The notes: generated from the sequence alone by a model not told the origin. A DNA stretch of 64,000 nucleotides from Patescibacteria group bacterium (GCA_043798935.1 JAZDOC010000022.1:15299-79298), one strand, 5' to 3'; counted from the first letter of the stretch, positions 4,395-30,400 are shown. Numbers and translations are program-made.

Positions 4395-5444
4395 TTATTT
4401 CCAGCTGGCTAAAATGCTTTCGAATACTGTTTCAACTTTTTCTTTGTTGTTATAATCAGAGTCGCTCATCAAAGCAATGTATTCATTATCACCTTTAGTC
4501 CATTTAGCGTATAATAATATATTATCGTATTCTGGGCTTTCATCTTGAGTGTAATAAATAGATATTTCTTGTCCGCTAATAGTTATTTTTTTAGCATCTT
4601 TATAATCTTTTCTACCACCAACACCCATTCCTGGATGATCAACAAACATTGTGAATTTATTATTACTGTTACTTGAATTTGTTAAGACTAATTCTAAAGT
4701 AGTGTCAGTACTATTAGGCGAAGTATTATTAACTTCTTCAGTTACAGAGTAATTACCAGGGTAAGCGAAACTAAAATTATATTTTGAATTAGAATAGTTT
4801 GATAAAGTAGAGGCTGATGTTGTAATTTCTTGGACGGTAACTTCGGGGATAGCAATAGATTTTAAAATTTCCATAAAAGTACCATCAGCTTGGTGTATAT
4901 TATTTTCATCAAGCAAGGCGAAGCTCATTTTATTCATTTGCCAAATCGCTACTGTACCAGAATCTTCACTCATGGCATAAACGCCATTATCTTCGGTATT
5001 TGCATAAGAGATAACTGCGATTGTAGCGTTGGGCGTCTCAACATCACTTGATACTTCAGCTAGCGTAAAACTATTAATAAATCGAGAATAGGTTTGAGTG
5101 GCAGAAAGCATTTCCCCACCTAAATTAGTAGCTGGGCACTCAGTAAATTCAATCAATTTTAAAGTGTCGAATTCATAAACTGTAGCGCAATCAATGCTAC
5201 CATTCTTTGTTTTCCAATCAGCTGGGTAACTGAAACTAATATTATTAGCTTCGTCCATAAAAGTAGCAGTGTCTGCACTTCGTGTCTCTACAGTAGCTTT
5301 AACTTCTGTAGCACTGACATTTTGATCTTCTTTAGTTACTTCAGGAGTAACATTTGTGTTTTTTGTAACAACGTCTTTTGTTGTCTGCGCGCATCCGGCA
5401 GTGAAAACCGCCAATAATGCTAGCAGTAATAAGGTTTTTTTCAT
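4395..5444 (-). CDS. Lipoprotein (FTAG|C lipobox) with repeated FSYP-motif domains
   Basis: MKKTLLLLALLAVFTAGC signal and lipobox. Low-complexity T/N-rich linker. Paralogous to 17545..18201. Confidence 0.6.
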   Translation of the reverse strand: MKKTLLLLALLAVFTAGCAQTTKDVVTKNTNVTPEVTKEDQNVSATEVKATVETRSADTATFMDEANNISFSYPADWKTKNGSIDCATVYEFDTLKLIEFTECPATNLGGEMLSATQTYSRFINSFTLAEVSSDVETPNATIAVISYANTEDNGVYAMSEDSGTVAIWQMNKMSFALLDENNIHQADGTFMEILKSIAIPEVTVQEITTSASTLSNYSNSKYNFSFAYPGNYSVTEEVNNTSPNSTDTTLELVLTNSSNSNNKFTMFVDHPGMGVGGRKDYKDAKKITISGQEISIYYTQDESPEYDNILLYAKWTKGDNEYIALMSDSDYNNKEKVETVFESILASWK

Positions 5445-5682
5445 AGTTTTTAAAATTAATTATTCTAACAAGCTATATAATATTATAATTATAATTTTGT
5501 TACATTATTAATAATAGAGTAAACAAAAAATACTCTTATTTGAGATAATTGATAAATGTTAATTAACAGGTCTTAATTTATTCAATTAAATTAATCTGTA
5601 TAATAAACAACGTGGTGTATAACTGTAGATTGAATTTATATTAATTGAATAAATTATTGATTCCCACTAAGAATGAATAATT

Positions 5683-15622: not shown

Positions 15623-15678
15623 CAAATATTAGTGTAGAGAAGCGCCATGGTTGTTGTACTATAGAAACACCTACATAA

Positions 15679-15708
15679 TGTAGAGACGCGCCATGGCGCG
15701 TCTCTACA
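15679..15708. terminator. Family B perfect 30-bp palindrome tgtagagacgcgccatggcgcgtctctaca, a likely terminator after ssb
   Basis: Perfect palindrome with a degenerate half-copy at 15633..15650. The same palindrome recurs at 20683..20712. Confidence 0.5.
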
Positions 15709-18464: not shown

Positions 18465-20060
18465 ATGATCAATCAAATGATCGGGTCGATGTCGTGCCTT
18501 CTCATGCTCATGATGAGCACGGGAGTGAAGGCAACGTGCGACGACGGAGCACACGCCTACATGGACGAGTTCGATGGCGTCGTGGCGTACTCCAATGGCG
18601 GATATACCGGCACTGGCTATGGTGATTGTCAGTGCGTTGAGTACATCAAGCGTTTCTACGGAACCGGCTCAGTCGGCAACGGGAACGTGGCATGTACCAA
18701 CCTCGCAAGCCTCTACGGCTTCAACTACTACAGCAACGGCGGCACCACACAGCCTCGAGTCGGTGATGTTCTGTGCTTCAGCTACGGCGCATACGGGCAC
18801 GTGGCCATCATCGATGAAGTGAACAGCAGCTCCGTGGAGATCATCGATCAGAATCGGAGCTCGAGCGACGCCACGCTGGATCTCAGCCTGGCAGTCTCAG
18901 GTGGTCGGTACACGATCGGCAACTTCGGAAGTAGTGCCGTTTATGTGGCGACTGGTTGGGCGCGGGATCCGAGCTACACCCCGCCTTCGACCTGCACCGA
19001 CCACACCTACGACGTGATCGCGGTGGAAGCGAGCGCGGACGGAAGCAGCTACGACTGGGTGAGCTTCTTCCTGCGCGACGATGATACCCTGCAGTCCTAC
19101 GGAACGGTGGCCTCGAATGTGGGCAACACCAGTGGCAACGTGGCCCTGCTCGTCGGCAACATCGACAGCAATTCCTACGACGAGATCGTGGAGGTACGCA
19201 CCAGTGGCAGCAGGACCTACCTGTACGTGTACCAGCCCACCGGCGACGGCGGGTTCGGCTCACGGACATTGTGGCGCACCGAGACCGGATTCGCGGCCGA
19301 GGAAGCGTTCCTGGCCGACACCAACAATGATGGCAAGGCCGATGTGATCCTGGGCAACGAACAGGCCGACTCCGAGAGCGACCACGACATGCAGTGGTAC
19401 AAGTACACGAGCACGGGTTCGTCCTTCAGCTCGTGTAGCAACTGGACCACTGACAACTCCGACGACTCGTTCGGGCAGAACGGCGATGTGTTCGCGATCG
19501 GCGACTTCAACTACAACGGCAAGGCCGAGATCCTGCGCGGTCGCGATGACTACAGCGGGTGCCCGAGCAATCTGGCGTGGTACTGGCTCCAGGCCGATGG
19601 CGACATCTATTCGCCGCACACCTGCTGGGGCTACATGGACAACCAGTTCCTGGTCGGCAACGTGGATACGGACAGCCACGACGAGATCGCGGAAGTGCGG
19701 AGCGCCCACGGCTACTCGGGCTCCACGGTTCCTACGTACTCGTGCGACCTGAACAGCTCCACCGGCGCCCTCACCAGCACCAAGCGCGCTAACGACAGCG
19801 GCGGCACGAGCGGCTGGTACTACATGTACGACGTCAACGAAGACGGCTACGATGACCTGATTCGCTGGAATGCGATGACCGTGACCGATGCTGGCGACGT
19901 GGTGTGGTTGTGCAACAACACGGGAGGCAATTGCTACCACAGCGTCACGCGCACGTTCATGGAGCAGACCTACGAGCAGACCATGGTGACCGGCATCTCG
20001 CAGGGCAGTGGCGACTACCTGCTCTGGGGCTACTTCGGCCAGCACACGGTGTGCGAGTAG
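18465..20060 (+). CDS. Secreted CHAP/NlpC-P60-like cysteine amidase-peptidase fused to FG-GAP/VCBS calcium-binding repeats
   Basis: N-terminal signal-like segment. Cys motif (YGDCQCVEYIKRFY) and His motif (GHVAIIDEV) typical of CHAP. At least five repeats with DxNxDGxxD/E-(I/L)x cores (DTNNDGKADVI, DFNYNGKAEIL, DVNEDGYDDLI, NIDSNSYDEIV, NVDTDSHDEIA). Confidence 0.65.
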   Translation: MINQMIGSMSCLLMLMMSTGVKATCDDGAHAYMDEFDGVVAYSNGGYTGTGYGDCQCVEYIKRFYGTGSVGNGNVACTNLASLYGFNYYSNGGTTQPRVGDVLCFSYGAYGHVAIIDEVNSSSVEIIDQNRSSSDATLDLSLAVSGGRYTIGNFGSSAVYVATGWARDPSYTPPSTCTDHTYDVIAVEASADGSSYDWVSFFLRDDDTLQSYGTVASNVGNTSGNVALLVGNIDSNSYDEIVEVRTSGSRTYLYVYQPTGDGGFGSRTLWRTETGFAAEEAFLADTNNDGKADVILGNEQADSESDHDMQWYKYTSTGSSFSSCSNWTTDNSDDSFGQNGDVFAIGDFNYNGKAEILRGRDDYSGCPSNLAWYWLQADGDIYSPHTCWGYMDNQFLVGNVDTDSHDEIAEVRSAHGYSGSTVPTYSCDLNSSTGALTSTKRANDSGGTSGWYYMYDVNEDGYDDLIRWNAMTVTDAGDVVWLCNNTGGNCYHSVTRTFMEQTYEQTMVTGISQGSGDYLLWGYFGQHTVCE

Positions 20061-20360
20061 ACGCATCACGGTACTAGCGCGCGACTAGTTTCAAACGGCG
20101 AGTAGGCGAAACGGCCAAAGCTCGCAAAGGTTCGATAGTTCTTTTTTATACGAAGGAGTTTGAGTAGGGAATTCACTTCTTCGTCGCGAGGGCGCTCGCC
20201 TAGCAGTTAAAGTTTCATGCTAAGTCCGTATGGATTTTTCAAAAAAACTTACACTGCTAGGCGGGCCACGATTCTTTAAAAAAGTTTATGTTTAATATAA
20301 ATATATTAAACATTTTTTGCATTATTAAGCTGACATTAATAATTAATTGGTTTATATAAT

Positions 20361-20465
20361 TGAATGTTTAGCCCACTGGCATAAAGCCAGGGGCTAAACT
20401 ATATATAATAACAAATAAAAAGCCCCGCCCTTTATGGGCGTGGGCTTTTTATTAAATATTTATCA
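20361..20465 (-). repeat. Family A composite repeat, copy 3 (reverse orientation), just 3' of the island gene
   Basis: Its reverse complement matches 5683..5795. Confidence 0.65.
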
Positions 20466-20600
20466 TTTACAGCCCGCGTTAGCCCTCGTCGGGAGACTCG
20501 GGTTCTTTGATTAATTTCAACCAAGAGGGCGAGTCTCTCCGGCCTCGCTGAGGCAAAGCCGAGAGCGGGCCTGACGAGCCCGATAAAAACCCACGCGCTA
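20466..20600. other. GC-rich structured segment of about 135 bp, with terminal gcccgc/gcgggc pairing and an internal gggagactcg/cgagtctctcc stem. It may be an ncRNA or an island remnant.
   Basis: Inverted repeats seen directly. The composition resembles the island but is separated from it by repeat A3. Confidence 0.3.
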
Positions 20601-20603
20601 TTC

Positions 20604-20712
20604 ATGTTTTGTAGAGACGTAGCATGGATATCCTGTAGAGACGCGGCGGAAAATTTGTATAGAGACGCGATACGGATATCCTGTAGAGACGCGCCATGGC
20701 GCGTCTCTACAT
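20604..20712 (+). repeat. Family B tandem array: four units of about 24 bp beginning tgtagagacg, ending in the perfect 30-bp palindrome
   Basis: Units start at 20610, 20634, about 20657 and 20683. The last equals the palindrome at 15679..15708. Confidence 0.55.
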
Positions 20713-20835
20713 TACATATTACACATAAAATCAGGCATTTTATAGACGGCGCAACATGTTTAGCGCCGTCTCTTGATATATTTGTCCACATGCCAATAGG
20801 CCATTTTTAATGCTAACAATAGCCAATTTCACGAA

Positions 20836-20861
20836 TGGAGCCGTCGCAAAAACCCTATTGA
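20836..20861 (+). promoter_or_regulatory. Family C motif 2 (gagccgtcgcaaaaaccctaTTGACG)
   Basis: A second copy of the motif found before ssb. Confidence 0.35.
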
Positions 20862-20955
20862 CGTTTTATATACATTGTTGTTAGTTTGTAGTAGAGAGTT
20901 TCAACGCCTCTCTCTTTCTTCCCTCCAATTGCAATTCATCTAAATGGACTGGCAA

Positions 20956-20983
20956 TTGACGGGAAATAAAAACAGCGTAAAAT
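20956..20983 (+). promoter_or_regulatory. Sigma-70-like promoter TTGACG-16-TAAAAT driving the leader of the downstream cassette
   Basis: Consensus-like hexamers with 16-nt spacing. Followed by a GGAGGG Shine-Dalgarno site and a micro-ORF. Confidence 0.4.
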
Positions 20984-21021
20984 ATAGTGCATCTTGCCCT
21001 AAGAATCGATTAGGAGGGTAA

Positions 21022-21048
21022 ATGAAAACTTATAAGACAGCAACATAG
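21022..21048 (+). CDS. Candidate 8-codon micro-ORF (MKTYKTAT) with a strong Shine-Dalgarno site, speculative
   Basis: aggagggtaaATG. It lies about 30 nt downstream of the predicted transcription start. Confidence 0.2.
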   Translation: MKTYKTAT

Positions 21049-21127
21049 GGAATTGTTGTCTGACAAATCTCTATTGTAATGAAGCCTGTTTTCCACTACT
21101 ATTTTACGCTGATTTTTATTCTAAAAA

Positions 21128-21316
21128 ATGTTAGAAACTATTATGAATATTTTAGAAGAATTATTTGAAAGATGGGGGTTTATCAGTTTATTTTTTGCTT
21201 TTTTGGTATTAATTAATCATGAATATAAAATTATTAGAACTGGTTATATGACCAGTTTTTTGTTTTATGAAGAAGCTGTGGCTAGGGTAAAAAGAGAGTA
21301 TCAAAAAACGATTTAA
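21128..21316 (+). CDS. Small single-TM protein (62 aa), hypothetical
   Basis: Open frame with a hydrophobic segment GFISLFFAFLVLI. Confidence 0.3.
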   Translation: MLETIMNILEELFERWGFISLFFAFLVLINHEYKIIRTGYMTSFLFYEEAVARVKREYQKTI

Positions 21317-21515
21317 ATATAACTTATCCACATCGAGATAAATTATTTTTTCTGAAATTGACAAAAAGGTGATACAATGTTCATGTATTTATTTGATTGG
21401 TATAAAAAAATAGCAATAATTTATATAAATATTAATTAATCAGAATTTTATTATTGTCAACTAATAAAATTTTATTAATGAAATATTTGTTAATTAATTT
21501 TTTGTCTAAACATTA

Positions 21516-22964
21516 ATGAAAAATAACAAAAATAAAATTAAAATTTTAATTTTTGGCGCTAGTGGTTTAGTTGGTAGCAGTGTTTTAAGAGAACTATTAC
21601 AAAGAGGCTATAAAAAAATAGCATTAGCGTACTTTGAAGATAAAAAATTAAGTGTTAACAGACTAAGAATAATTGAAAAAGAATATAGTGTTTGTTTAAA
21701 GAAATATGAAAAAAATGTATTTGTACAAAAAAATTTAAGCAATGACTCTTTTCAGAATATATTTTCTTCAATCAATAAGACAAAAAGTCTAGAGAGATAT
21801 ATAAAAAATAAAAAATTAAGCAAAGAAAGTTCAGTATTATTTGATATAATCAATGATTTTAAACCAACTTTTATAATTGATTGTATTAATACTGCCACTA
21901 TTTGTTCTTACATTAATAACAATGGAAAAAACGATAAAACAAGTTTAGGTTTATTTTTATTATTGAAATATTTTCAAAATTTAAATAATGTTTTTAAAAG
22001 AAATTTTGCCTCAAAAGATTTTCATGAAATTCAAAAATATATAAAAATTGGTACAACTGGCATTGGTGGCATGGGCTTAAATATGCCTTTTACACACGGA
22101 GAAGACAAGCCATCGATGTCTCTTTTAAAAAAGGTTGCGTTTGCTGGTGCTCAAACGAATATATTATTAGCTATGCGAAGAAACAATTATATAAAAATAA
22201 AAGAAATTATACCCTCAACAGCAATTTTTTCTAAAGAATTATTGATCTCTCAGAATGATAGAATTATGAAATATCAGAAATCATTAAAGATAAATAACAA
22301 AAATACGCATTTTGGTTTCGATGGCGGTGAAAGTGGTTTATATTCAGTTGAAGAATTTTCATTGTTATCTAATAAAGCCCAAATGGGTTTTATTGAAGTA
22401 ATGTTTTTAGCGAAAATTATTGCGGATGAATTATTTAAAGATAAACAGGATGCTCTGCTAGGCCTTGATAAATATTGTATTAAAAATCATCGTAACTCAT
22501 ATAAATTGCGGAAAAAAATGATAAATGATGCAAAACAAATTATGGCGCTTCATAATATTCAATGTGTAGCACACGGTAATTTAGGCCCATATATAATAAG
22601 GCGGATTCTTTTTGAGGCTACAATTTTTACAAAATATCTAACAAAAAACAGATTTATTTTTTTTAAATCTAATAATAAAGTAATGGCAATTGAAATTAAC
22701 AAAGATTTAATGAAAGATAGAACATTAGTTGATGAAATAAATTTTTCAGGTTTAAAATTTATAAAATATAATTATAAAAAAAATCAGAAATCAATAAAAA
22801 AAGATTCTTTATTGATTTATATTGATGAAAAAAAATGCAGACATTGGAAAACACATTTCTCTTTACTTGGTTTACAGAAAAAAAATGCTATAATACCAAC
22901 AATTAGTGAGCTTGTCTCTAATTTAATCATTTTCTACAATAATGATTTACAAAAATTTAGTTAA
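21516..22964 (+). CDS. NAD(P)-binding Rossmann-fold protein (482 aa) with a large uncharacterized C-terminal region
   Basis: N-terminal motif KILIFGASGLVGSSVLRELLQRG (GxxGxxG). Translationally coupled to the next gene by a 23-nt overlap. Confidence 0.5.
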   Translation: MKNNKNKIKILIFGASGLVGSSVLRELLQRGYKKIALAYFEDKKLSVNRLRIIEKEYSVCLKKYEKNVFVQKNLSNDSFQNIFSSINKTKSLERYIKNKKLSKESSVLFDIINDFKPTFIIDCINTATICSYINNNGKNDKTSLGLFLLLKYFQNLNNVFKRNFASKDFHEIQKYIKIGTTGIGGMGLNMPFTHGEDKPSMSLLKKVAFAGAQTNILLAMRRNNYIKIKEIIPSTAIFSKELLISQNDRIMKYQKSLKINNKNTHFGFDGGESGLYSVEEFSLLSNKAQMGFIEVMFLAKIIADELFKDKQDALLGLDKYCIKNHRNSYKLRKKMINDAKQIMALHNIQCVAHGNLGPYIIRRILFEATIFTKYLTKNRFIFFKSNNKVMAIEINKDLMKDRTLVDEINFSGLKFIKYNYKKNQKSIKKDSLLIYIDEKKCRHWKTHFSLLGLQKKNAIIPTISELVSNLIIFYNNDLQKFS

Positions 22965-24495
22965 TTCTTTTTTCCCAGCACCATATCCCGTTAAATCAAC
23001 GGCTGAACTTGAACAACTCTTTTTAGACTTTTCAGTCGAGGATTTTTTTAATTTCCTGAAAAATGTTGATATTGGGCTTATTAACGAAATTTCAAATCAG
23101 CGTGTGCTTGAGCTTTTTAACTTAGCAGCGCACCATGTTCCAGCATATAAGGATTTTCTAAAAAAAAATAATATTAATTCTAATGATATTAAGGATATAA
23201 ATGATTTTTCACTTGTTCCAATTATGGACAAGTCTAATTATTTGAATAAGTATTCTATTGAAGAGCTTTCATGGGATGGAAAATTAAATGGGCATAGCAT
23301 GCTATCAGTAAGTTCTGGAACATCCGGTAAGCCATATTATTGGCCCAGGAGTATATATTTAGAATATGAAACGGCAATTACACACGAGATTTTTTGCAAC
23401 ATGTTTTTTGACATTAAAAATAAAAAAACATTGGTAATAGTTGCATATGCAATGGGAATGTATGTTGCTGGAACATTTACATTAAATTCTTTTAGTAAAC
23501 TAGCAAAAAAAGGATATAAAATTTCAGTTGTTTCACCAGGCTTAGATGAAACTGAAGTTCTTCGAATAGCGGAAGATTTATATCAAGATTATGACCAAAT
23601 AATTTTAGCAGGCTATCCGCCATTTGTTAAAGATATTCTTGATTATGGTATTGCTAATAATATTTCATTAGACAAATATAATTTAAAATTTATTTTTGGT
23701 GCAGAAAATTTTAGTGAGGAATGGCGATCATATGTATTGAATTTAGCTGGTCATAAATCGTTATTTAAAATCCCGTATTATTCAATGAACACATACGGGT
23801 CAGCCGATTGTGCTATTTTGGGTCACGAAACACCATTTTCTATTAAATATCGCCGATTCATAAAATCACAAAACATGGAACGCATTGCCTTTAATTGTGA
23901 ACACATGCCAACGTTGGTTCAATTTAATCCATTTGTTAAATATTTTGAATTAGTTAATCAAAAGTTAATTTTTAGTGCTAATGGCGGCATCCCTCTTATA
24001 AGGTATAATATTAATGACTTAGGAAATATAGTTTCTCACAAAGAGTTATGCAACAAGCTCAAAATAAATTTTATTGATTCGGATTTTTCGTCGGAAAATA
24101 AATTTAATAAATTTCCATTTCTTTATTTATACGGTAGAGCAGGGAATACAGTTACAATATATGGAGTAAATATTTACTATGAAAATATTAAGATGGCTCT
24201 AGAAAATCAGCAAATAATTCATATTGTATCAGGGAAATTTTCATTAAAGACTACTGTAGATAAAGGATATAATCAATCTTTAGAAATTGATATTGAGTTG
24301 TCCACTAAAAAAGATGCTTCAAATAACGAAAAAGGATTAATTAGTACTATTATTCAGCACACTCTAGAACAAAATAATCTAGAGTATAAAAAATTAAAAT
24401 TAAAAATTGGCAGCAAAGCAATTCCAAAGATAAATTTTTATTTAAGAAATCATTTTAAACAAATTAAAAGTAAACATAAATGGATAGAAAATTGA
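22942..24495 (+). CDS. Adenylate-forming enzyme of the PaaK / coenzyme F390 synthetase / CapK family
   Basis: SSGTSGKPYYWPRS matches the PaaK-type SSGTTGKP AMP-binding loop. The approximately 500-aa size fits the family. Confidence 0.55.
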   Translation: MIYKNLVNSFFPAPYPVKSTAELEQLFLDFSVEDFFNFLKNVDIGLINEISNQRVLELFNLAAHHVPAYKDFLKKNNINSNDIKDINDFSLVPIMDKSNYLNKYSIEELSWDGKLNGHSMLSVSSGTSGKPYYWPRSIYLEYETAITHEIFCNMFFDIKNKKTLVIVAYAMGMYVAGTFTLNSFSKLAKKGYKISVVSPGLDETEVLRIAEDLYQDYDQIILAGYPPFVKDILDYGIANNISLDKYNLKFIFGAENFSEEWRSYVLNLAGHKSLFKIPYYSMNTYGSADCAILGHETPFSIKYRRFIKSQNMERIAFNCEHMPTLVQFNPFVKYFELVNQKLIFSANGGIPLIRYNINDLGNIVSHKELCNKLKINFIDSDFSSENKFNKFPFLYLYGRAGNTVTIYGVNIYYENIKMALENQQIIHIVSGKFSLKTTVDKGYNQSLEIDIELSTKKDASNNEKGLISTIIQHTLEQNNLEYKKLKLKIGSKAIPKINFYLRNHFKQIKSKHKWIEN

Positions 24496-25523
24496 AGGAA
24501 TATAGAATATTAAATTATAATCATGATCGCTCCTCGCTTGATGTACTATTTAATAATGGAGCTCAAGTTATTGATTTTTTCAACGAACAATTATCTGAAT
24601 TAAATAATATTCAATTACAAGTTGATCAAAATAATAGTTATAAAACAAGAAATTGTTCCAATTTAAAAAAAGAAGGTAATTGGGTTTGGTATCCATGGTT
24701 AAATTCTCTTGTGCATGTTCTTAAAGAAAGTGATTTTTTTGAAGTAAAAACTGCAAGGAACAAACTATTAATTAATAAAAATGAACAGTTAAATTTTTAT
24801 AACTACAAAATAGGAATAGCAGGTTTATCAGTTGGGAATAGCATTGCAACAACTATTAAGCTCCAGGGAGGTGCAAAAAAAATTAAAATAGCTGATCATG
24901 ATACATTATCTTTATCAAATACAAATCGAATAAAGGCAGGCATTAATAATTTAGGTTTAAAGAAGACTGAAATAACAAGACGTCAGATTTTAGAGATTGA
25001 CCCATATTCAGATATTTCAGTATATTCAGATGGAATAAATTTAAATAATGTTACCGATTTTATTAATGATATAGATTTAATTATTGATGAGGTTGATGAT
25101 TTTAAAATAAAAATTTTGTTAAGAGAACAGGCGAGAATAAAAAAAATTCCCTTGTTAATGATTACAGACAATGATGACGGTGCATTAATTGATTATTATC
25201 CATATAATTATATTGATAAAGTTCCATTGTTTTATAACATTGCCGACACTATTCTATACAATTTTTTAAAAAAAGAAACAATTACAAAACAAGAAATGGT
25301 GCAATTAAGTTCAGAAATAGTTGGTAAATCAAATATTTCAAAAAGAATGAATACCTCGTTACAATTAATAGGCAAAGAGCTTTATTCATGGCCTCAGCTT
25401 GGAACGGCCGCCACTTTTTCCGGAGTTATTGGTTGTTATATGGTAAGAATGCTTGCAAACGGTCAACAATTTAATTTTAATCGCAAATTAATTAGCATTA
25501 ATAATTTATTAGAATGTTATTAA
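24480..25523 (+). CDS. E1-like (ThiF/MoeB/MccB family) adenylyltransferase with an N-terminal extension of about 100 aa
   Basis: Rossmann motif KIGIAGLSVGNSIA, followed by KIKIADHDTLSLSNTNR (compare DxDxVExSNLNRQ) and DLIIDEVDDFKIKILLRE. Confidence 0.6.
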   Translation: MDRKLKEYRILNYNHDRSSLDVLFNNGAQVIDFFNEQLSELNNIQLQVDQNNSYKTRNCSNLKKEGNWVWYPWLNSLVHVLKESDFFEVKTARNKLLINKNEQLNFYNYKIGIAGLSVGNSIATTIKLQGGAKKIKIADHDTLSLSNTNRIKAGINNLGLKKTEITRRQILEIDPYSDISVYSDGINLNNVTDFINDIDLIIDEVDDFKIKILLREQARIKKIPLLMITDNDDGALIDYYPYNYIDKVPLFYNIADTILYNFLKKETITKQEMVQLSSEIVGKSNISKRMNTSLQLIGKELYSWPQLGTAATFSGVIGCYMVRMLANGQQFNFNRKLISINNLLECY

Positions 25524-27835
25524 TAACAACAATTATTTCTTGTGTATTTTCTTTGATAATTAGTATTATAGTAATTCGTCATAAAAGAAATAATTATTCA
25601 AGTATAATTTTTTTCATATTTTGTTTAGCTTTGTTTTTTTGGTCAATTTCAAATTATGCATCTATTATTGTCATTAGTAAGTTTTATATTTTACTTTGGA
25701 TGCGAATAGTTATGATTTTTGCCGTTATTCAATCTATGTCTTTTTTGCTTTTTATTAACAATTTTCCACATAAACATTTGGTGATAAGAAAAAAATATGT
25801 ATATCTTGCATCAATCATTGCTATATTAAATTTTCTTCTATGTTGTTCACCGTATCTATTTAGAGATGTCCTTATTGAAGACGGATTCAGGTCGCCAGTT
25901 ATTGCACCAGGCATTTTATTGTTCATACTCACCACGGTAGGGTCTATAATATCAGGTTTTATTATTTTATTAAAGCGATTAAAAAAAAGTCGGGGGTTGG
26001 TCAAGCATCAATTATATTATATCTTTCTAGGTTCTTTAATCATGTTTTTTTTAATTATATTATTTAATTTAATTTTTGTTATTATTTTTCATATTTCATT
26101 TTTTGTCGATTGGGGTCCAGTTTTTGTTTTGCCCTTTATTTTTAGCACAACTTACGCTATTATTCGCTATCGTCTAATGGACATTAAGTTAATCATCACC
26201 CGTTCCTTAATATTCTTCTTCCTTACTTTAACCGTAGCCTCTACATTCGTACTAGTTTCTTCTTTAGCCGGAATATTTTTTGCTAATAGCTTTGGGGCTA
26301 ACCAATATGTGATTTGGTTTGTGGCCGCGATAATCATCGTATTGGGCTTAGACCCCATTAAAGACGCTTTGGCCAAAGAAACAGACAAAGTTTTCTTTAA
26401 AGGTAAAGTTAATTATGACGCGGTATTAAAAAATATTACCGAGATTCTTTCCGAAGAAGTGCATGTAAAAGAAATTATTATTAAAACGCAAAATCGTTTA
26501 AAACAAGATTTAAAGATAAAAGACGCTACATTACTTATTTATTTCGGTGATGATTTCTTTTTACAACCCGAAGAAGTACCGACCAAAGCAGAAATACTTT
26601 CACGAGAAACACCACATTATAATGAAGAAGCACAGACTCAAGAAGCAGTGCAGGCGAGTGATGATTCGAGTGTTAACAATGCGATTGTTGCTCATAATAA
26701 AAAAGCCACTCAATGCATGCCGGCACTAGCCAAGCATTTTACAAAAGACGCATTTATTATTGTGGCCGACGAGTTGGAGCGCAAAATTTCCGATTGCGAT
26801 GATCCGGAAAAAGCGGCTGAAATGCAGGCAATTTACAACGAAATTCAGCAAATGAACGCATCCATGGTAGTTCCGATTTATCGCAACAAAGAGTTGTCTA
26901 GCATTTTATTTTTAGGACAAAAAACCAGTGGCGATGTATTTAATAACGAAGACATCCAAATGCTTGAAGTGCTGGCACCGCAGTTATCAGCCGCTTTGTT
27001 TAAAGCCACGTTATTCCAAGAAGCTAAATTATTCAATATCAAACTTAAACAAGAAGTGGAACATGCCACTCACGAACTTAAGCATGCCAACGAACATCTG
27101 CAGGAGCTTGATGACGCTAAATCCGAATTCATGTCTATTGCTTCGCATCAACTGCGCACGCCACTATCCGGCATTATGGGCTATCTGTCCATGATCCTAG
27201 ACGGCGATTATGGCAATCTTTCTGAAGAGCAAACACCCATTATGAAAGAAGTATTTTCGGCCAGCCAGCGCTTAATCCGCTTGGTAAACTTATTTTTAAA
27301 CGTCACGCGTATTGAAGCCGGGCGCTTGAAATTTAATTTTACCGAGATCGACATGCCTAAAATTTTAGGCGAACTTGTTCATGAATTAAAGCCGGCCGCG
27401 GATAAAAAAGGCTTAAAACTTATCATGGCTAAAACCAAAGATAAAATTCCACCCATTACTGTGGATGCGGATAAAATTCAAGATATCGTTTTAAATTTGA
27501 TCGATAACGCTACTAAATACACTCAAAAAGGAAAGATTACTGTGGATGTTAAGTTGCAGAATAAAAAGCACATTTTAATTACTGTAACCGATACCGGCAT
27601 GGGTATTGACCCTGAAGAAGTGCCAAAACTATTTAATAAATTCGTGCGTGGCGATGGCATGGTCCAAGTAAATCCAAATGGCGCCGGCTTAGGCTTATTC
27701 ATTGCCAAGAAAATCACCGAAGGCCACCATGGCGACATCTGGGCCGAATCTCCGGGCGTGGGCAAAGGTACTACTTTCAATGTACTGCTTCCAATTAAAC
27801 AGCCCAAGGTTGTTGAAGAAGCGGAAAAGAAATAA
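25514..27835 (+). CDS. Multi-pass membrane sensor histidine kinase with HisKA and HATPase_c domains, and no cognate response regulator nearby
   Basis: About seven N-terminal TM helices. H-box (IASHQLRTPLSGIMGYL), N-box (DNATKYT) and G-boxes (DTGMGI, GAGLGL). A 10-nt overlap with the E1-like gene. Confidence 0.8.
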   Translation: MLLITTIISCVFSLIISIIVIRHKRNNYSSIIFFIFCLALFFWSISNYASIIVISKFYILLWMRIVMIFAVIQSMSFLLFINNFPHKHLVIRKKYVYLASIIAILNFLLCCSPYLFRDVLIEDGFRSPVIAPGILLFILTTVGSIISGFIILLKRLKKSRGLVKHQLYYIFLGSLIMFFLIILFNLIFVIIFHISFFVDWGPVFVLPFIFSTTYAIIRYRLMDIKLIITRSLIFFFLTLTVASTFVLVSSLAGIFFANSFGANQYVIWFVAAIIIVLGLDPIKDALAKETDKVFFKGKVNYDAVLKNITEILSEEVHVKEIIIKTQNRLKQDLKIKDATLLIYFGDDFFLQPEEVPTKAEILSRETPHYNEEAQTQEAVQASDDSSVNNAIVAHNKKATQCMPALAKHFTKDAFIIVADELERKISDCDDPEKAAEMQAIYNEIQQMNASMVVPIYRNKELSSILFLGQKTSGDVFNNEDIQMLEVLAPQLSAALFKATLFQEAKLFNIKLKQEVEHATHELKHANEHLQELDDAKSEFMSIASHQLRTPLSGIMGYLSMILDGDYGNLSEEQTPIMKEVFSASQRLIRLVNLFLNVTRIEAGRLKFNFTEIDMPKILGELVHELKPAADKKGLKLIMAKTKDKIPPITVDADKIQDIVLNLIDNATKYTQKGKITVDVKLQNKKHILITVTDTGMGIDPEEVPKLFNKFVRGDGMVQVNPNGAGLGLFIAKKITEGHHGDIWAESPGVGKGTTFNVLLPIKQPKVVEEAEKK

Positions 27836-28004
27836 CTTTTCGCCCACTGGCTAATACAAATATCGCGCCTACTGGCATCCCTCCTACGCTAAAGCTGCAG
27901 AGGGCAAGAAAGCCAGGGGCTTTTTTTGATGTTTATTTAGTTCTTTTATGGTTTGTATTTTTATGCTAAAATGATAAAAGTTAATCATTATTTATTCATT
28001 TTTT

Positions 28005-29135
28005 ATGAAAACCTTGAAAGACCTAAATGTAAACGGTCAGAAAGTACTATTGCGGGTAGATTTTAATGTTCCATTAACCGATAACATGCAAGTAAAAGAT
28101 AACACGCGCATTAAAGAGGCTGTGCCTACTATAAAATATTTACTTGAGCAAGGCGGTGCTAAACAAGTAATATGCTTAGCACATTTCGGCCGACCCAAAG
28201 GAAAAATTGTAGAAGAAATGCGTTTGGCGCCAGTAGTTTCGGAATTAGAAACTATTTTAGGCATGCCGGTCGGTTACAGTCGCGATTTAACCGTCCCAGA
28301 AGGAAAAGTTGTTCTATTAGAAAATATTCGTTTCTATGCCGGTGAAGAAATAAACGACCCGGAATTTTCAAAGCAGTTGGCATCTTTAGCTGATTGTTAT
28401 GTAAACGACGCTTTTGGTACAGCGCATCGCGCCCATGGTTCAACGGCCGGCGTGGCTGAATTGCTACCACATGCGGCCGGGTTATTAATGCAAAAAGAAG
28501 TGGAGAACTTAGAAAAAGTTTTGCATAATCCCGAGCACCCGGTAGTGGCTATTATAGGTGGCGCCAAAATTTCCACTAAAATTTCTCTTATTAAAAATCT
28601 GCTTCCCAAAGTAGAGTACTTGCTATTGGGTGGAGCGTTAGCTAACACGGTTTTACTTGCTCAACATAAACAAGTAGGTAAGTCGCTGGTGGAAAAAGAT
28701 TTAGCCAATACAATTTCCGACTTAGTTAGCAATAAATTACGTATACCGGTTGATGTAGCGACTGTAAAAGATATTGAAACTAAAAAAGATCTAAAAATTA
28801 AAGCTGTTGGAGCAGTAATAGCCGACGACATTATTTTAGACATTGGCCCAGACACTGTTAATTTATACGAAAAATGTATTCAACAAGCCAAAACCATAAT
28901 TTGGAACGGCCCTATGGGATTATTTGAACAGACAGACTTTGCCAAAGGTACTTATGGCGTGGCTCGGGCCGTGGCCGATTCAGATGGCTATTCAGTAATA
29001 GGTGGCGGTGAAACCGTAGCGGCCGTAAAAAATACCGGGCTTGAAAATAAAATTTCATTTATTTCTACCGGCGGTGGCGCCATGCTAGAATTTTTAGAAG
29101 GAAAAACACTTCCGGGTATAGAAGCTTTAGAATAA
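28005..29135 (+). CDS. pgk: Phosphoglycerate kinase
   Basis: LLRVDFNVP and other PGK motifs. Confidence 0.9.
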   Translation: MKTLKDLNVNGQKVLLRVDFNVPLTDNMQVKDNTRIKEAVPTIKYLLEQGGAKQVICLAHFGRPKGKIVEEMRLAPVVSELETILGMPVGYSRDLTVPEGKVVLLENIRFYAGEEINDPEFSKQLASLADCYVNDAFGTAHRAHGSTAGVAELLPHAAGLLMQKEVENLEKVLHNPEHPVVAIIGGAKISTKISLIKNLLPKVEYLLLGGALANTVLLAQHKQVGKSLVEKDLANTISDLVSNKLRIPVDVATVKDIETKKDLKIKAVGAVIADDIILDIGPDTVNLYEKCIQQAKTIIWNGPMGLFEQTDFAKGTYGVARAVADSDGYSVIGGGETVAAVKNTGLENKISFISTGGGAMLEFLEGKTLPGIEALE

Positions 29136-29158
29136 AATAAATAATCAATAAAATAAAT

Positions 29159-30400
29159 ATGAAAATTAAAAAAATTATTGCTCGACAAATATTAGATTCA
29201 CGCGGAAACCCTACTGTTGCTTGTAGCGTGGAATTAATTAATGGTATAAAAGCCGAGGCCATGGTGCCATCGGGTGCTTCAACTGGCGTTCATGAAGCCG
29301 TGGAATTACGCGATGGCAATAAAAAAATTTATAATGGAAAAAGCGTTTTAAAAGCCGTAAATAATGTTAATAAAAAGATCGCGCCAAAATTAATCGGTCA
29401 TGATGTTACTTCACAGCGGGCTATTGATGAAATCATGATTAACTTAGACGGCACTGAAAATAAAAGTAAGCTTGGCGCTAATGCAATTTTAAGCGCGTCT
29501 TTAGCTTGTGCTAAAGCCGGAGCCATGGCCAAAAAATTGCCATTATACAAATATATTAGAAACACTTATAAATTATCTGAAAAAAAATATATTCTTCCAT
29601 ACCCCATGATGAATATTTTAAATGGTGGCAAGCATGCCGATAGCGGTCTGGAAGTGCAGGAATTTATGGTGGTCCCGCAAGCTAAAAATTTTGCTAAACG
29701 CATCCAGCAGGGAGCTGAAATTTTTCACGCTTTAAAAAAAATTTTATCTATGGACAAACAAAGCGTCGGAGTAGGCGATGAAGGAGGCTTTGCCCCAAAA
29801 TTAAATCGCAACGAAGACGCGCTAATTTATATTAAAAAAGCCATCCAACTAGCCGGCTATAAATTAGGTTCAGACATTAAAATTGCACTGGATCCGGCCG
29901 CCTCGGAATTTTATTTGGAAAAAGATAAATATAAATTCGATAAACAAGCAGTATCAGCTGTTAAACTCTTAAAAGAATACGAAAAATGGATAAATAAATA
30001 TTCCATCGTTTCCATTGAAGATGGCTTACAGGAAGATGATTGGGACAACTGGTGGATCATGACCCAGCGCCTGGGTAAAAAGATTTGTCTGGTAGGGGAC
30101 GATTTATTTGTTACCAATATCAAGCGTCTCCAGATGGGCATCGAGCGCAAAGTAGCTAACAGTGTGCTAATCAAAGTAAATCAAATTGGCACGCTTTCCG
30201 AAACCATGGATTGCATTAAACTGGCCAAGAAAAATAATTATAAAGTAATCGTTTCACATCGAAGCGGGGAAACAGAAGATACCACTATTTCCGATTTAGC
30301 CGTGGCCGTAAACGCCAATTACATAAAAACCGGTTCATTATGCCGCAGTGAGCGTATTTGTAAATATAATCGTTTATTAGCTATTAGCAAAGAGCTATAG
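29159..30400 (+). CDS. eno: Enolase
   Basis: ARQILDSRGNPTV N-terminus and the SHRSGETEDT active-site motif. Confidence 0.9.
   Translation: MKIKKIIARQILDSRGNPTVACSVELINGIKAEAMVPSGASTGVHEAVELRDGNKKIYNGKSVLKAVNNVNKKIAPKLIGHDVTSQRAIDEIMINLDGTENKSKLGANAILSASLACAKAGAMAKKLPLYKYIRNTYKLSEKKYILPYPMMNILNGGKHADSGLEVQEFMVVPQAKNFAKRIQQGAEIFHALKKILSMDKQSVGVGDEGGFAPKLNRNEDALIYIKKAIQLAGYKLGSDIKIALDPAASEFYLEKDKYKFDKQAVSAVKLLKEYEKWINKYSIVSIEDGLQEDDWDNWWIMTQRLGKKICLVGDDLFVTNIKRLQMGIERKVANSVLIKVNQIGTLSETMDCIKLAKKNNYKVIVSHRSGETEDTTISDLAVAVNANYIKTGSLCRSERICKYNRLLAISKEL

Follow-up and report, generated by a model that had tools for sequence, protein, structure and literature searches.

In a stretch of 64,000 nucleotides from a Patescibacteria group bacterium (GCA_043798935.1 JAZDOC010000022.1:15299-79298; hereafter the window), four overlapping genes on the plus strand form a cassette that probably makes a small amino-acid-derived molecule, and not a modified peptide, and that perhaps also senses this molecule. 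The window lies on a contig of the Patescibacteria, or Candidate Phyla Radiation (CPR), and has a GC content of 34.6%. The first gene, G1 (21516..22964, 482 aa), encodes an NAD(P)-dependent oxidoreductase of the short-chain dehydrogenase/reductase (SDR) fold with a PF27054 C-terminal domain, and it is the redox partner in this variant of the cassette. G2 (22942..24495, 517 aa) encodes a PaaK-type adenylate-forming ligase of the ANL superfamily, and G3 (24480..25523, 347 aa) a stand-alone ThiF-like protein, predicted to be an ATP-dependent cyclodehydratase of the TrzS (Rv1355c)/TyzB/OxzB oxazolone-synthetase type. The fourth gene, G4 (25514..27835, 773 aa), encodes a sensor histidine kinase with the architecture HisKA_7TM-GAF-HisKA-HATPase_c. 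On balance, we favor reading the cassette as a form of the oxazolone-synthetase (Oxz/Tyz/Trz) pathway that is specific to Patescibacteria, independent of coenzyme A (CoA) and co-transcribed with a dedicated seven-transmembrane (7TM) kinase. The known pathways are OxzAB from Pseudoalteromonas rubra and TyzACB and TrzAS from Mycobacterium tuberculosis and its relatives; by analogy with them, the product would probably be a heterocycle derived from an aromatic amino acid.

The cassette had been singled out in an earlier reading made from the nucleotide sequence alone (the sequence-only reading). The motifs quoted there were found in the four proteins, and its fold assignments, i.e., an NAD-binding enzyme, a PaaK-like adenylating enzyme, a ThiF-like protein and a 7TM histidine kinase, broadly hold. 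The four open reading frames (ORFs) and their overlaps of 23, 16 and 10 nt at the G1/G2, G2/G3 and G3/G4 junctions are real, but the claim that such tight coupling is unlike the surrounding genes is not, with 17 of the 41 same-strand junctions in the window overlapping. A locus from another metagenome (L001), with proteins ~ 50% identical, has the same gene order and repeats all three overlaps, which argues that the layout is conserved and not due to chance in ORF calling. A terminator-like hairpin followed by a T-run (27906..27926, plus strand), a pattern match only with a 9-bp stem situated 70 nt past the kinase stop codon, likely marks the end of the operon. The GC content of the cassette is 24–29% compared with 34.6% for the window; horizontal transfer was considered on this basis and judged too weak an argument.

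We examined 84 loci around G2 and G3 homologs and three around G1 homologs (L168, L169 and L170), clustered the neighboring ORFs and derived a presence/absence matrix by tblastn. Both G2 and G3 were present in 28 loci, including the window, almost all of them labeled as Patescibacteria lineages; two of the metagenome-assembled genomes (MAGs) are labeled Gammaproteobacteria, which is an assignment by label only. The two genes are mostly adjacent, in varying order. With the order and overlaps repeated in L001 and the core recurring in 28 loci, the suggestion that the genes are conserved as a unit was confirmed.

The relationship to oxazolone synthesis is based on G3. Its membership in the ThiF family is well founded (PF00899, E 5e-17), as previously proposed; the likeness to MccB and E1 enzymes, in contrast, did not stand, as the G3 family profile matches MccB with an E value of only 1e-3 and in the Rossmann core only (profile positions 124–195), compared to an E value of 1.6e-79 (268 bits) for G3 against NF005901, the model of the Rv1355c family. 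The latter match aligns residues 15–345 with positions 22–340 of the 722-residue model, and the next-best ThiF-family model reached 65 bits. Judged by sequence, G3 is a stand-alone homolog of the N-terminal cyclase half of Rv1355c/TrzS, and its score does not reach the cutoff of 476 set for full-length proteins, as G3 lacks the other half. The match spans the N-terminal extension in every CPR homolog tested; the extension is therefore a trait of this small-molecule enzyme family. An alignment of 22 family members revealed the invariant residues D139xD141...N147xN149-R150 and D203-E204-x-D206, and from the general ThiF motif we infer that the motif Asp may be equivalent to the catalytic D217 of M. 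smegmatis TrzS. TrzS converts N-acyl-tryptophan to N-acyl tryptazolone by an ATP-dependent cyclization followed by an O2-dependent desaturation (PMC12856293), and TyzB and OxzB do the equivalent for tyrosine- and phenylalanine-derived oxazolones (PMC10404671; bioRxiv 10.1101/2020.06.11.147165); experiments have established all three as cyclases that form oxazolones from N-acyl amino acids at the expense of ATP (PMC12856293, PMC10404671, bioRxiv 10.1101/2020.06.11.147165). Since these are the specific relatives of G3, the earlier remark that the cassette matches no characterized pathway is outdated, while a novel signaling-molecule pathway was among the options that the sequence-only reading listed.

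The constant partner of the cyclase is G2, for which no Pfam match was found. A search with its AlphaFold2 model (predicted local distance difference test score of 86) in Foldseek placed BT_0428 and PaaK1/2 at the top (E 1e-21, probability 1.0), with 15–16% identity, and further neighbors of the modeled structure were 2-hydroxyisobutyryl-CoA (2-HIB-CoA) ligase, ClxA and McbA. ClxA, from the closoxazole pathway, and McbA, an amide-bond synthetase, are CoA-independent ligases. G2 has the two-domain fold, the P-loop (SSGTSGKP) and a C-terminal lysine of the catalytic type that mark the ANL superfamily, which it shares with PaaK, ClxA and McbA; within the G2 family, the SSG.(S/T)G.P loop and the C-terminal K511 are invariant. 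The label of a PaaK-like enzyme given to the second gene thus holds for the fold and the AMP-binding loop, but in sequence the resemblance is weak, at 47 bits against the PaaK model TIGR02155 with a cutoff of 646. Unlike PaaK, with which identity is low and equivalog cutoffs are not reached, G2 has no paa genes in its context. We conclude that G2 is a PaaK-type ANL ligase but no genuine phenylacetate-CoA ligase. Its large family comprises 480 clusters at E<=1e-30, has relatives in at least 558 species genomes and includes fusion proteins (P0285, P0304, P0324 and P0370) of the types ThiF-G2, amino-acid dehydrogenase-G2-ThiF (1242 aa), G2-ThiF and dehydrogenase-G2. Based on these fusions, the enzymes belong to one pathway.

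The redox partner differs among the loci. An Acg/TrzS-type flavin mononucleotide (FMN) oxidase, matching the Acg family and the C-terminal half of the Rv1355c model, was present in 14 of the 28 loci. In a Saccharimonadales MAG (L009, 11482–13206), it is fused to G3 in a TrzS-like manner, and this protein reached 374 bits on the TrzS model despite being cut by the contig end. A same-strand G1 lies directly upstream in seven of the 28 loci (the window, L001, L002, L004, L168, L169 and L170), and none of these seven G1-type cassettes contains the FMN oxidase. A strict rule of either G1 or FMN oxidase, never both, was rejected, as L009 has a distant, divergent G1-like gene alongside the G3-oxidase fusion; the rule holds only for the same-strand G1 type. 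Likewise, a division into short (~ 350 aa) and long (~ 395 aa) G3 proteins tracking the G1 and FMN-oxidase cassette types was dropped, given that the G1-type cassette of L168 has a G3 of 387 aa. Other recurrent neighbors include a ScyB-like tryptophan dehydrogenase (302 bits), class I/II aminotransferases and S-adenosylmethionine (SAM) methyltransferases, the last located between G1 and G2 in L170 and before the second G2 copy in L002. These accessory genes encode enzymes that act on small molecules, with aromatic 2-oxo acids as the common theme. L002 has two copies of the cassette, and the 62-aa gene annotated between them (5432–5620) is left over from the C-terminus of a G1; near-identical to the tail of P0131, it indicates that the cassette was duplicated and the second reductase lost.

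G1 itself was correctly described as an NAD-binding enzyme, having an N-terminal Rossmann motif and an SDR fold; the NAD(P)-binding SDR core is combined with the C-terminal PF27054 domain ('Beta_methylindole_red_C'). We take the name of this family to refer to Ind2 (EC 1.1.1.397), and Ind3 is presumably PaaK-like. In the indolmycin pathway of Streptomyces griseus, Ind1 is a C-methyltransferase, Ind2 an NADH-dependent ketoreductase and Ind3 the enzyme of an ATP-dependent coupling step. G1 is likened to Ind2 by the PF27054 name and not by sequence. The cassettes of L002 and L170, with G1, G2 and a SAM methyltransferase, have the same trio of activities; in contrast to indolmycin biosynthesis, there are no equivalents of Ind4, Ind5 or Ind6 in the cassette, the ThiF-type cyclase occurs only here, and PF27054 is broad. 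3-Methylindolepyruvate is reduced by Ind2, and the resulting 2-hydroxy acid enters the ATP-dependent coupling by Ind3 that yields an oxazolinone (PMC8246080).

Taken together, the following route may be proposed. A 2-oxo acid, probably aromatic, would come from the dehydrogenase or aminotransferase in sister loci or from general metabolism. In the window, G1 would reduce this amino-acid-derived 2-oxo acid to a 2-hydroxy acid at the expense of NAD(P)H, while in most sister loci the ScyB-like tryptophan dehydrogenase or an aminotransferase would supply the 2-oxo acid and the FMN oxidase would replace G1 as the redox partner. G2 would adenylate the carboxylic acid so obtained and transfer its acyl group straight to an amine, in the simplest case that of an amino acid, to give an N-acyl amino acid, thereby standing in for the acyl-CoA-dependent N-acyltransferase of the known pathways. 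G3 would then adenylate the carboxylate that is still free, and intramolecular attack would give a five-membered oxazolone-type ring, in the manner of TrzS. This product would be desaturated by the FMN oxidase in most sister cassettes. As the window variant has no FMN oxidase step, its product may be different, e.g., saturated or bearing a hydroxyacyl group. The labile product, or its hydrolysis product, may be perceived by the 7TM domain of G4, which would signal to a response regulator encoded elsewhere in the genome; known oxazolones are hydrolyzed in acid or methanol (PMC12856293).

Comparison with the experimentally studied oxazolone pathways indicates both likeness and difference. G3 and the ThiF-like cyclase half of TrzS are specific homologs, a relationship that takes in the N-terminal extension, and the adenylation motifs are conserved; most sister cassettes have the Acg/TrzS-type FMN oxidase, either separate or fused; and the presumed logic is shared, with an N-acyl amino acid made first and its ring closed by ATP afterwards. 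On the other hand, there is no GNAT-type acyl-CoA N-acyltransferase in the cassette, which instead has a constant PaaK-type ligase, sometimes fused to the cyclase. The window variant has a PF27054 NAD(P) reductase in place of the FMN oxidase, a 7TM histidine kinase is located inside the operon, and the phylum is Patescibacteria, not Proteobacteria or Actinomycetota. We therefore count the cassette as a variant, and not a member, of the oxazolone pathway, because two of the three defining components, the FMN oxidase (in the 64-kb window) and the N-acyltransferase (among the cassette genes), were not found.

That absence is one of several points that weigh against an oxazolone-type assignment. 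Searches by tblastn with four CPR FMN-oxidase queries found no FMN oxidase in the 64-kb window, and no acyltransferase domain was found in the four cassette genes or the recurrent neighbors, a search that covered these proteins and not the whole window. Each chemical step in the above route is an analogy drawn from the domain identities, conserved catalytic motifs, gene linkage and fusions that we observed, and G2 could still be a CoA ligase after all. Furthermore, G2 has a life of its own: it is paired with the kinase in the absence of G3 in L025 and L026 and, outside Patescibacteria, Nostocales genomes have G2 homologs with neither G3 nor the kinase. An Ind2-like ketoreductase role for G1 is made less secure by the size of PF27054, with at least 566 metagenome matches, and by the unrelated, housekeeping-looking contexts of its distant members. 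On the signaling side, the perception of the product by the kinase is argued from gene adjacency, and no receiver domain was detected in the 64-kb window (best E 0.15) by a hidden Markov model (HMM) built from eight cassette-linked response regulators.

Several observations were made on the wider families of G2 and G1. In L024, L025 and L026, a 7TM histidine kinase gene comes after G2 and no ThiF cyclase is encoded nearby; the link between ligase and kinase may be tighter than that between ligase and cyclase. In Nostocales, the G2 homolog is usually divergent and adjoins two Ser/Thr protein kinase genes without a ThiF cyclase or histidine kinase (L030, L032, L035, L037, L043-L047, L051, L052, L055-L057, L059, L061-L063, L068, L070, L073-L075, L077, L078, L083 and L084). 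This is a second tie of G2-type ligases to signaling kinases, and it may be order-level synteny only. For G1, the metagenome profile scan returned only distant PF27054 proteins with 25–29% identity, and no linkage of this broad family to G2 or G3 was seen among these distant matches. Three such proteins of ~ 560 aa with 24–27% identity were located in L085 (7001–8683), L086 (5500–7206) and L087 (7001–8662). The first of them, in a Bacteroidota-type genome, comes after a 2-oxoacid dehydrogenase E1/E2 pair and beside paaABCD, and the other two are downstream of scpA-scpB-rluB. The PF27054 family thus appears to include a housekeeping branch.

A sensor kinase is likewise a constant feature of the cassette. 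As the sequence-only reading had recognized, G4 is a histidine kinase with about seven transmembrane segments: Pfam assigns HisKA_7TM, GAF, HisKA and HATPase_c domains, the first 280 aa contain 8–9 hydrophobic segments, and the H-box (SHQLRTP at H544) is intact. Its description as an orphan within the window also proved correct by the receiver-domain search mentioned above. Of the 28 loci with G2 and G3, 24 have a homologous 7TM kinase close by; among the four that do not, three stop at a contig edge. A single-domain response regulator is encoded directly 3' of the kinase in L002, L007, L012, L021, L168 and L169; in another five loci, it is no more than a few kb away. Directly upstream of G1-type cassettes, we also observed paralogs without a kinase core, consisting of HisKA_7TM only or 7TM-GAF (L004, 3510–4844; L168, 6004–8786, three in a row; L170, 1926–3560). 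The constant 7TM kinase in the operon together with the extra 7TM-only paralogs suggests that the kinase perceives the product or a precursor.

Operons with an autoinducer synthase and a membrane histidine-kinase receptor are known from CqsA/CqsS, LuxM/LuxN and PhcB/PhcS. The cassette resembles them in having synthase genes beside, or co-transcribed with, a polytopic sensor kinase, and in the response regulator found near the kinase in several sister loci; we know of no homology between the two in the enzymes or the sensor domains. More tentatively, the arrangement of G2, G3, a redox enzyme in some cases, the 7TM kinase and in some cases a response regulator may be a phylum-wide synthase/receptor pair, producing a labile oxazolone-type autoinducer (an azlactone or a compound derived from an N-acyl amino acid) from aromatic amino-acid carbon without acyl-CoA and sensing it by the neighboring HisKA_7TM kinase. 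If true, this would represent quorum-sensing-like or episymbiont-host signaling native to CPR bacteria, and it would provide the first physiological role and the first receptor for biological oxazolones. Biological oxazolone synthesis was discovered only in 2020–2025, and a candidate receptor adjoining the synthase gives a direct handle on what oxazolones are for. The variant is conserved across Patescibacteria, whose genomes are very small and whose biosynthetic capacity is very limited. Its acyl supply would depend on an ATP-dependent ligase in place of acyl-CoA, its redox partners are exchangeable, and a dedicated 7TM kinase is retained in the operon. It also offers a testable role for the Pfam-less PaaK-like family and points to one for HisKA_7TM, a sensor domain that is little understood. 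The searchable full-text literature (oxazolone with Patescibacteria, HisKA_7TM, or CPR ThiF/nitroreductase/kinase) yielded no account of this module.

The serious alternative is that the chemistry is the same and the biology is different. The metabolite might not be a self-signal and might instead be an antimicrobial, a factor directed at the host bacterium or a stress compound, with the kinase only regulating the operon in response to another cue; we regard this as quite possible, at less than an even chance. The physiological role of oxazolones is still to be settled, with induction by stress or antibiotics having been reported (PMC12856293; bioRxiv 10.1101/2020.06.11.147165), indolmycin, made via Ind2, is an antibiotic (PMC8246080), and kinases are often co-transcribed with genes under their control. 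However, G4 is embedded in the operon, with the 10-nt overlap with G3, and is kept in the 24 loci across cassette variants, and the extra 7TM-only paralogs occur at the same loci. The embedded kinase and the paralogs argue for a closer tie than generic regulation, without deciding it.

Modification of a peptide or protein, as the sequence-only reading had envisaged, is unlikely. In that case, the E1-like enzyme with its peptide clamp would take part in microcin-C-like adenylation, in the synthesis of a ribosomally synthesized and post-translationally modified peptide, or in ubiquitin-like (Ubl) tagging. Apart from ThiF-family membership, such a role could draw on the ~ 100-aa extension, on weak matches to the Rossmann core of MccB (microcin C) and PaaA (pantocin A) with E values of 1e-3 to 1e-5, and on PADLOC E1-E2 models, which match G3 weakly and in the core only (E 6e-9). 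The similarity of G3 to MccB, PaaA and E1 is nevertheless confined to the ThiF Rossmann core, and the 268 bits of the TrzS model include the extension, compared to at most 65 bits for any other ThiF-family model. The extension, once proposed to be an MccB-type clamp, is common to the TrzS family and has no sequence match in MccB; the N-terminal 100 aa of the G3 family profile gave no sequence match to solved structures. Ubl tagging found no support either, with no invariant Cys in the G3 family alignment and no E2, JAB or Ubl partner among the conserved cassette neighbors; a precursor peptide and a catalytic Cys are also missing from the cassette. No conserved ORFs of 18–90 aa were found near 24 cassettes, and neither the 8-codon micro-ORF nor the 62-aa single-transmembrane ORF that the sequence-only reading had placed upstream of G1 has a counterpart beside any related cassette. 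In addition, the accessory genes encode an amino-acid dehydrogenase, an aminotransferase, a methyltransferase and the FMN oxidase.

Catabolism or salvage of aromatic acids is comparably improbable. On this view, the kinase would sense the substrate, G1 would act as a dehydrogenase and G2 as a true aryl-acid CoA ligase similar to PaaK or indoleacetate-CoA ligase. PaaK is indeed the best named match of G2 in sequence and predicted structure, and the distant G1 relative in L085 adjoins paaABCD and a 2-oxoacid dehydrogenase. Against this, the G2 score is far from the PaaK cutoff, no paa genes were found near any of the cassettes, which also leaves aside the possibility raised earlier of a true phenylacetate-CoA ligase with paa genes nearby, and the obligate partner is an oxazolone-type cyclase, sometimes fused to G2, which has no place in CoA-dependent catabolism. 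A role of G3 in tRNA or cofactor modification, either as a TcdA-like cyclodehydratase for cyclic N6-threonylcarbamoyladenosine (ct6A) or as a MoeB/ThiF activator of a sulfur carrier, is the least probable of all: the ring-closing ThiF enzyme TcdA is the best solved-structure relative of the G3 family profile (E 1.4e-16), but G3 reaches only 48 of the 304 bits required by the TcdA model and stays far below the cutoffs of the MoeB and ThiF models, no ThiS/MoaD-like gene is nearby, and the operon partners are unrelated to tRNA modification.

The regulatory elements proposed upstream of the oxazolone-type cassette fared less well than its genes. The consensus promoter (TTGACG-16-TAAAAT, 20956–20983) is at chance level, being one of 48 promoter-like sites in 8 kb with a shuffled expectation of 43 +/- 7, and it is 530 nt upstream of G1. 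A transcription start near 20990 is not supported. An inverted repeat at 20962–21122, with 22-nt arms (20963–20984/21100–21121), is predicted to fold into a ~ 160-nt hairpin (dG -46.8 kcal/mol, z -4.9), which contains the -10 element, the GGAGGG and the 8-codon ORF. The GGAGGG is paired within this hairpin, so that its proposed function as a Shine-Dalgarno site is not supported. The window has no further copies of the hairpin, Rfam gave nothing above threshold for 19900–28100, none of the proteins of neighboring loci matched the 1.4-kb upstream spacer, and no shared upstream motif was found in the seven G1-type loci. Immediately upstream of the G1 start (21427–21502), there are AT-rich inverted and direct repeats, with AATTTTATTA(T/A)TG occurring twice, 24 nt apart; these could be an operator, or they may be due to chance in AT-rich DNA.

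Other features were observed around the cassette. Phosphoglycerate kinase is encoded within 8 kb of G2 in CPR loci (28005–30400 in the window, L004 and L013), with an enolase gene next in the window and L004. Four Nostocales loci (L047, L050, L055 and L083) show the same proximity to G2, which may be a coincidence. Directly upstream of the cassette spacer, a gene for a CHAP and FG-GAP repeat protein (18465–20060, plus strand) has a GC content of 60.5% compared with 34.6% for the window. The gene has the look of foreign DNA, whether acquired horizontally or joined in by a chimeric assembly, and its protein matched nothing in the phage collection. A dispersed GC-rich palindromic repeat, TGTAGAGACGCG, occurs at 15633–15708 and 20634–20711, the latter including the perfect palindrome TGTAGAGACGCGCCATGGCGCGTCTCTACA at 20682–20711. 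The window contains eight copies of the TGTAGAGACGCG repeat, compared to 0.08 expected, and similar palindromes are present in several cyanobacterial loci (L059, L070).

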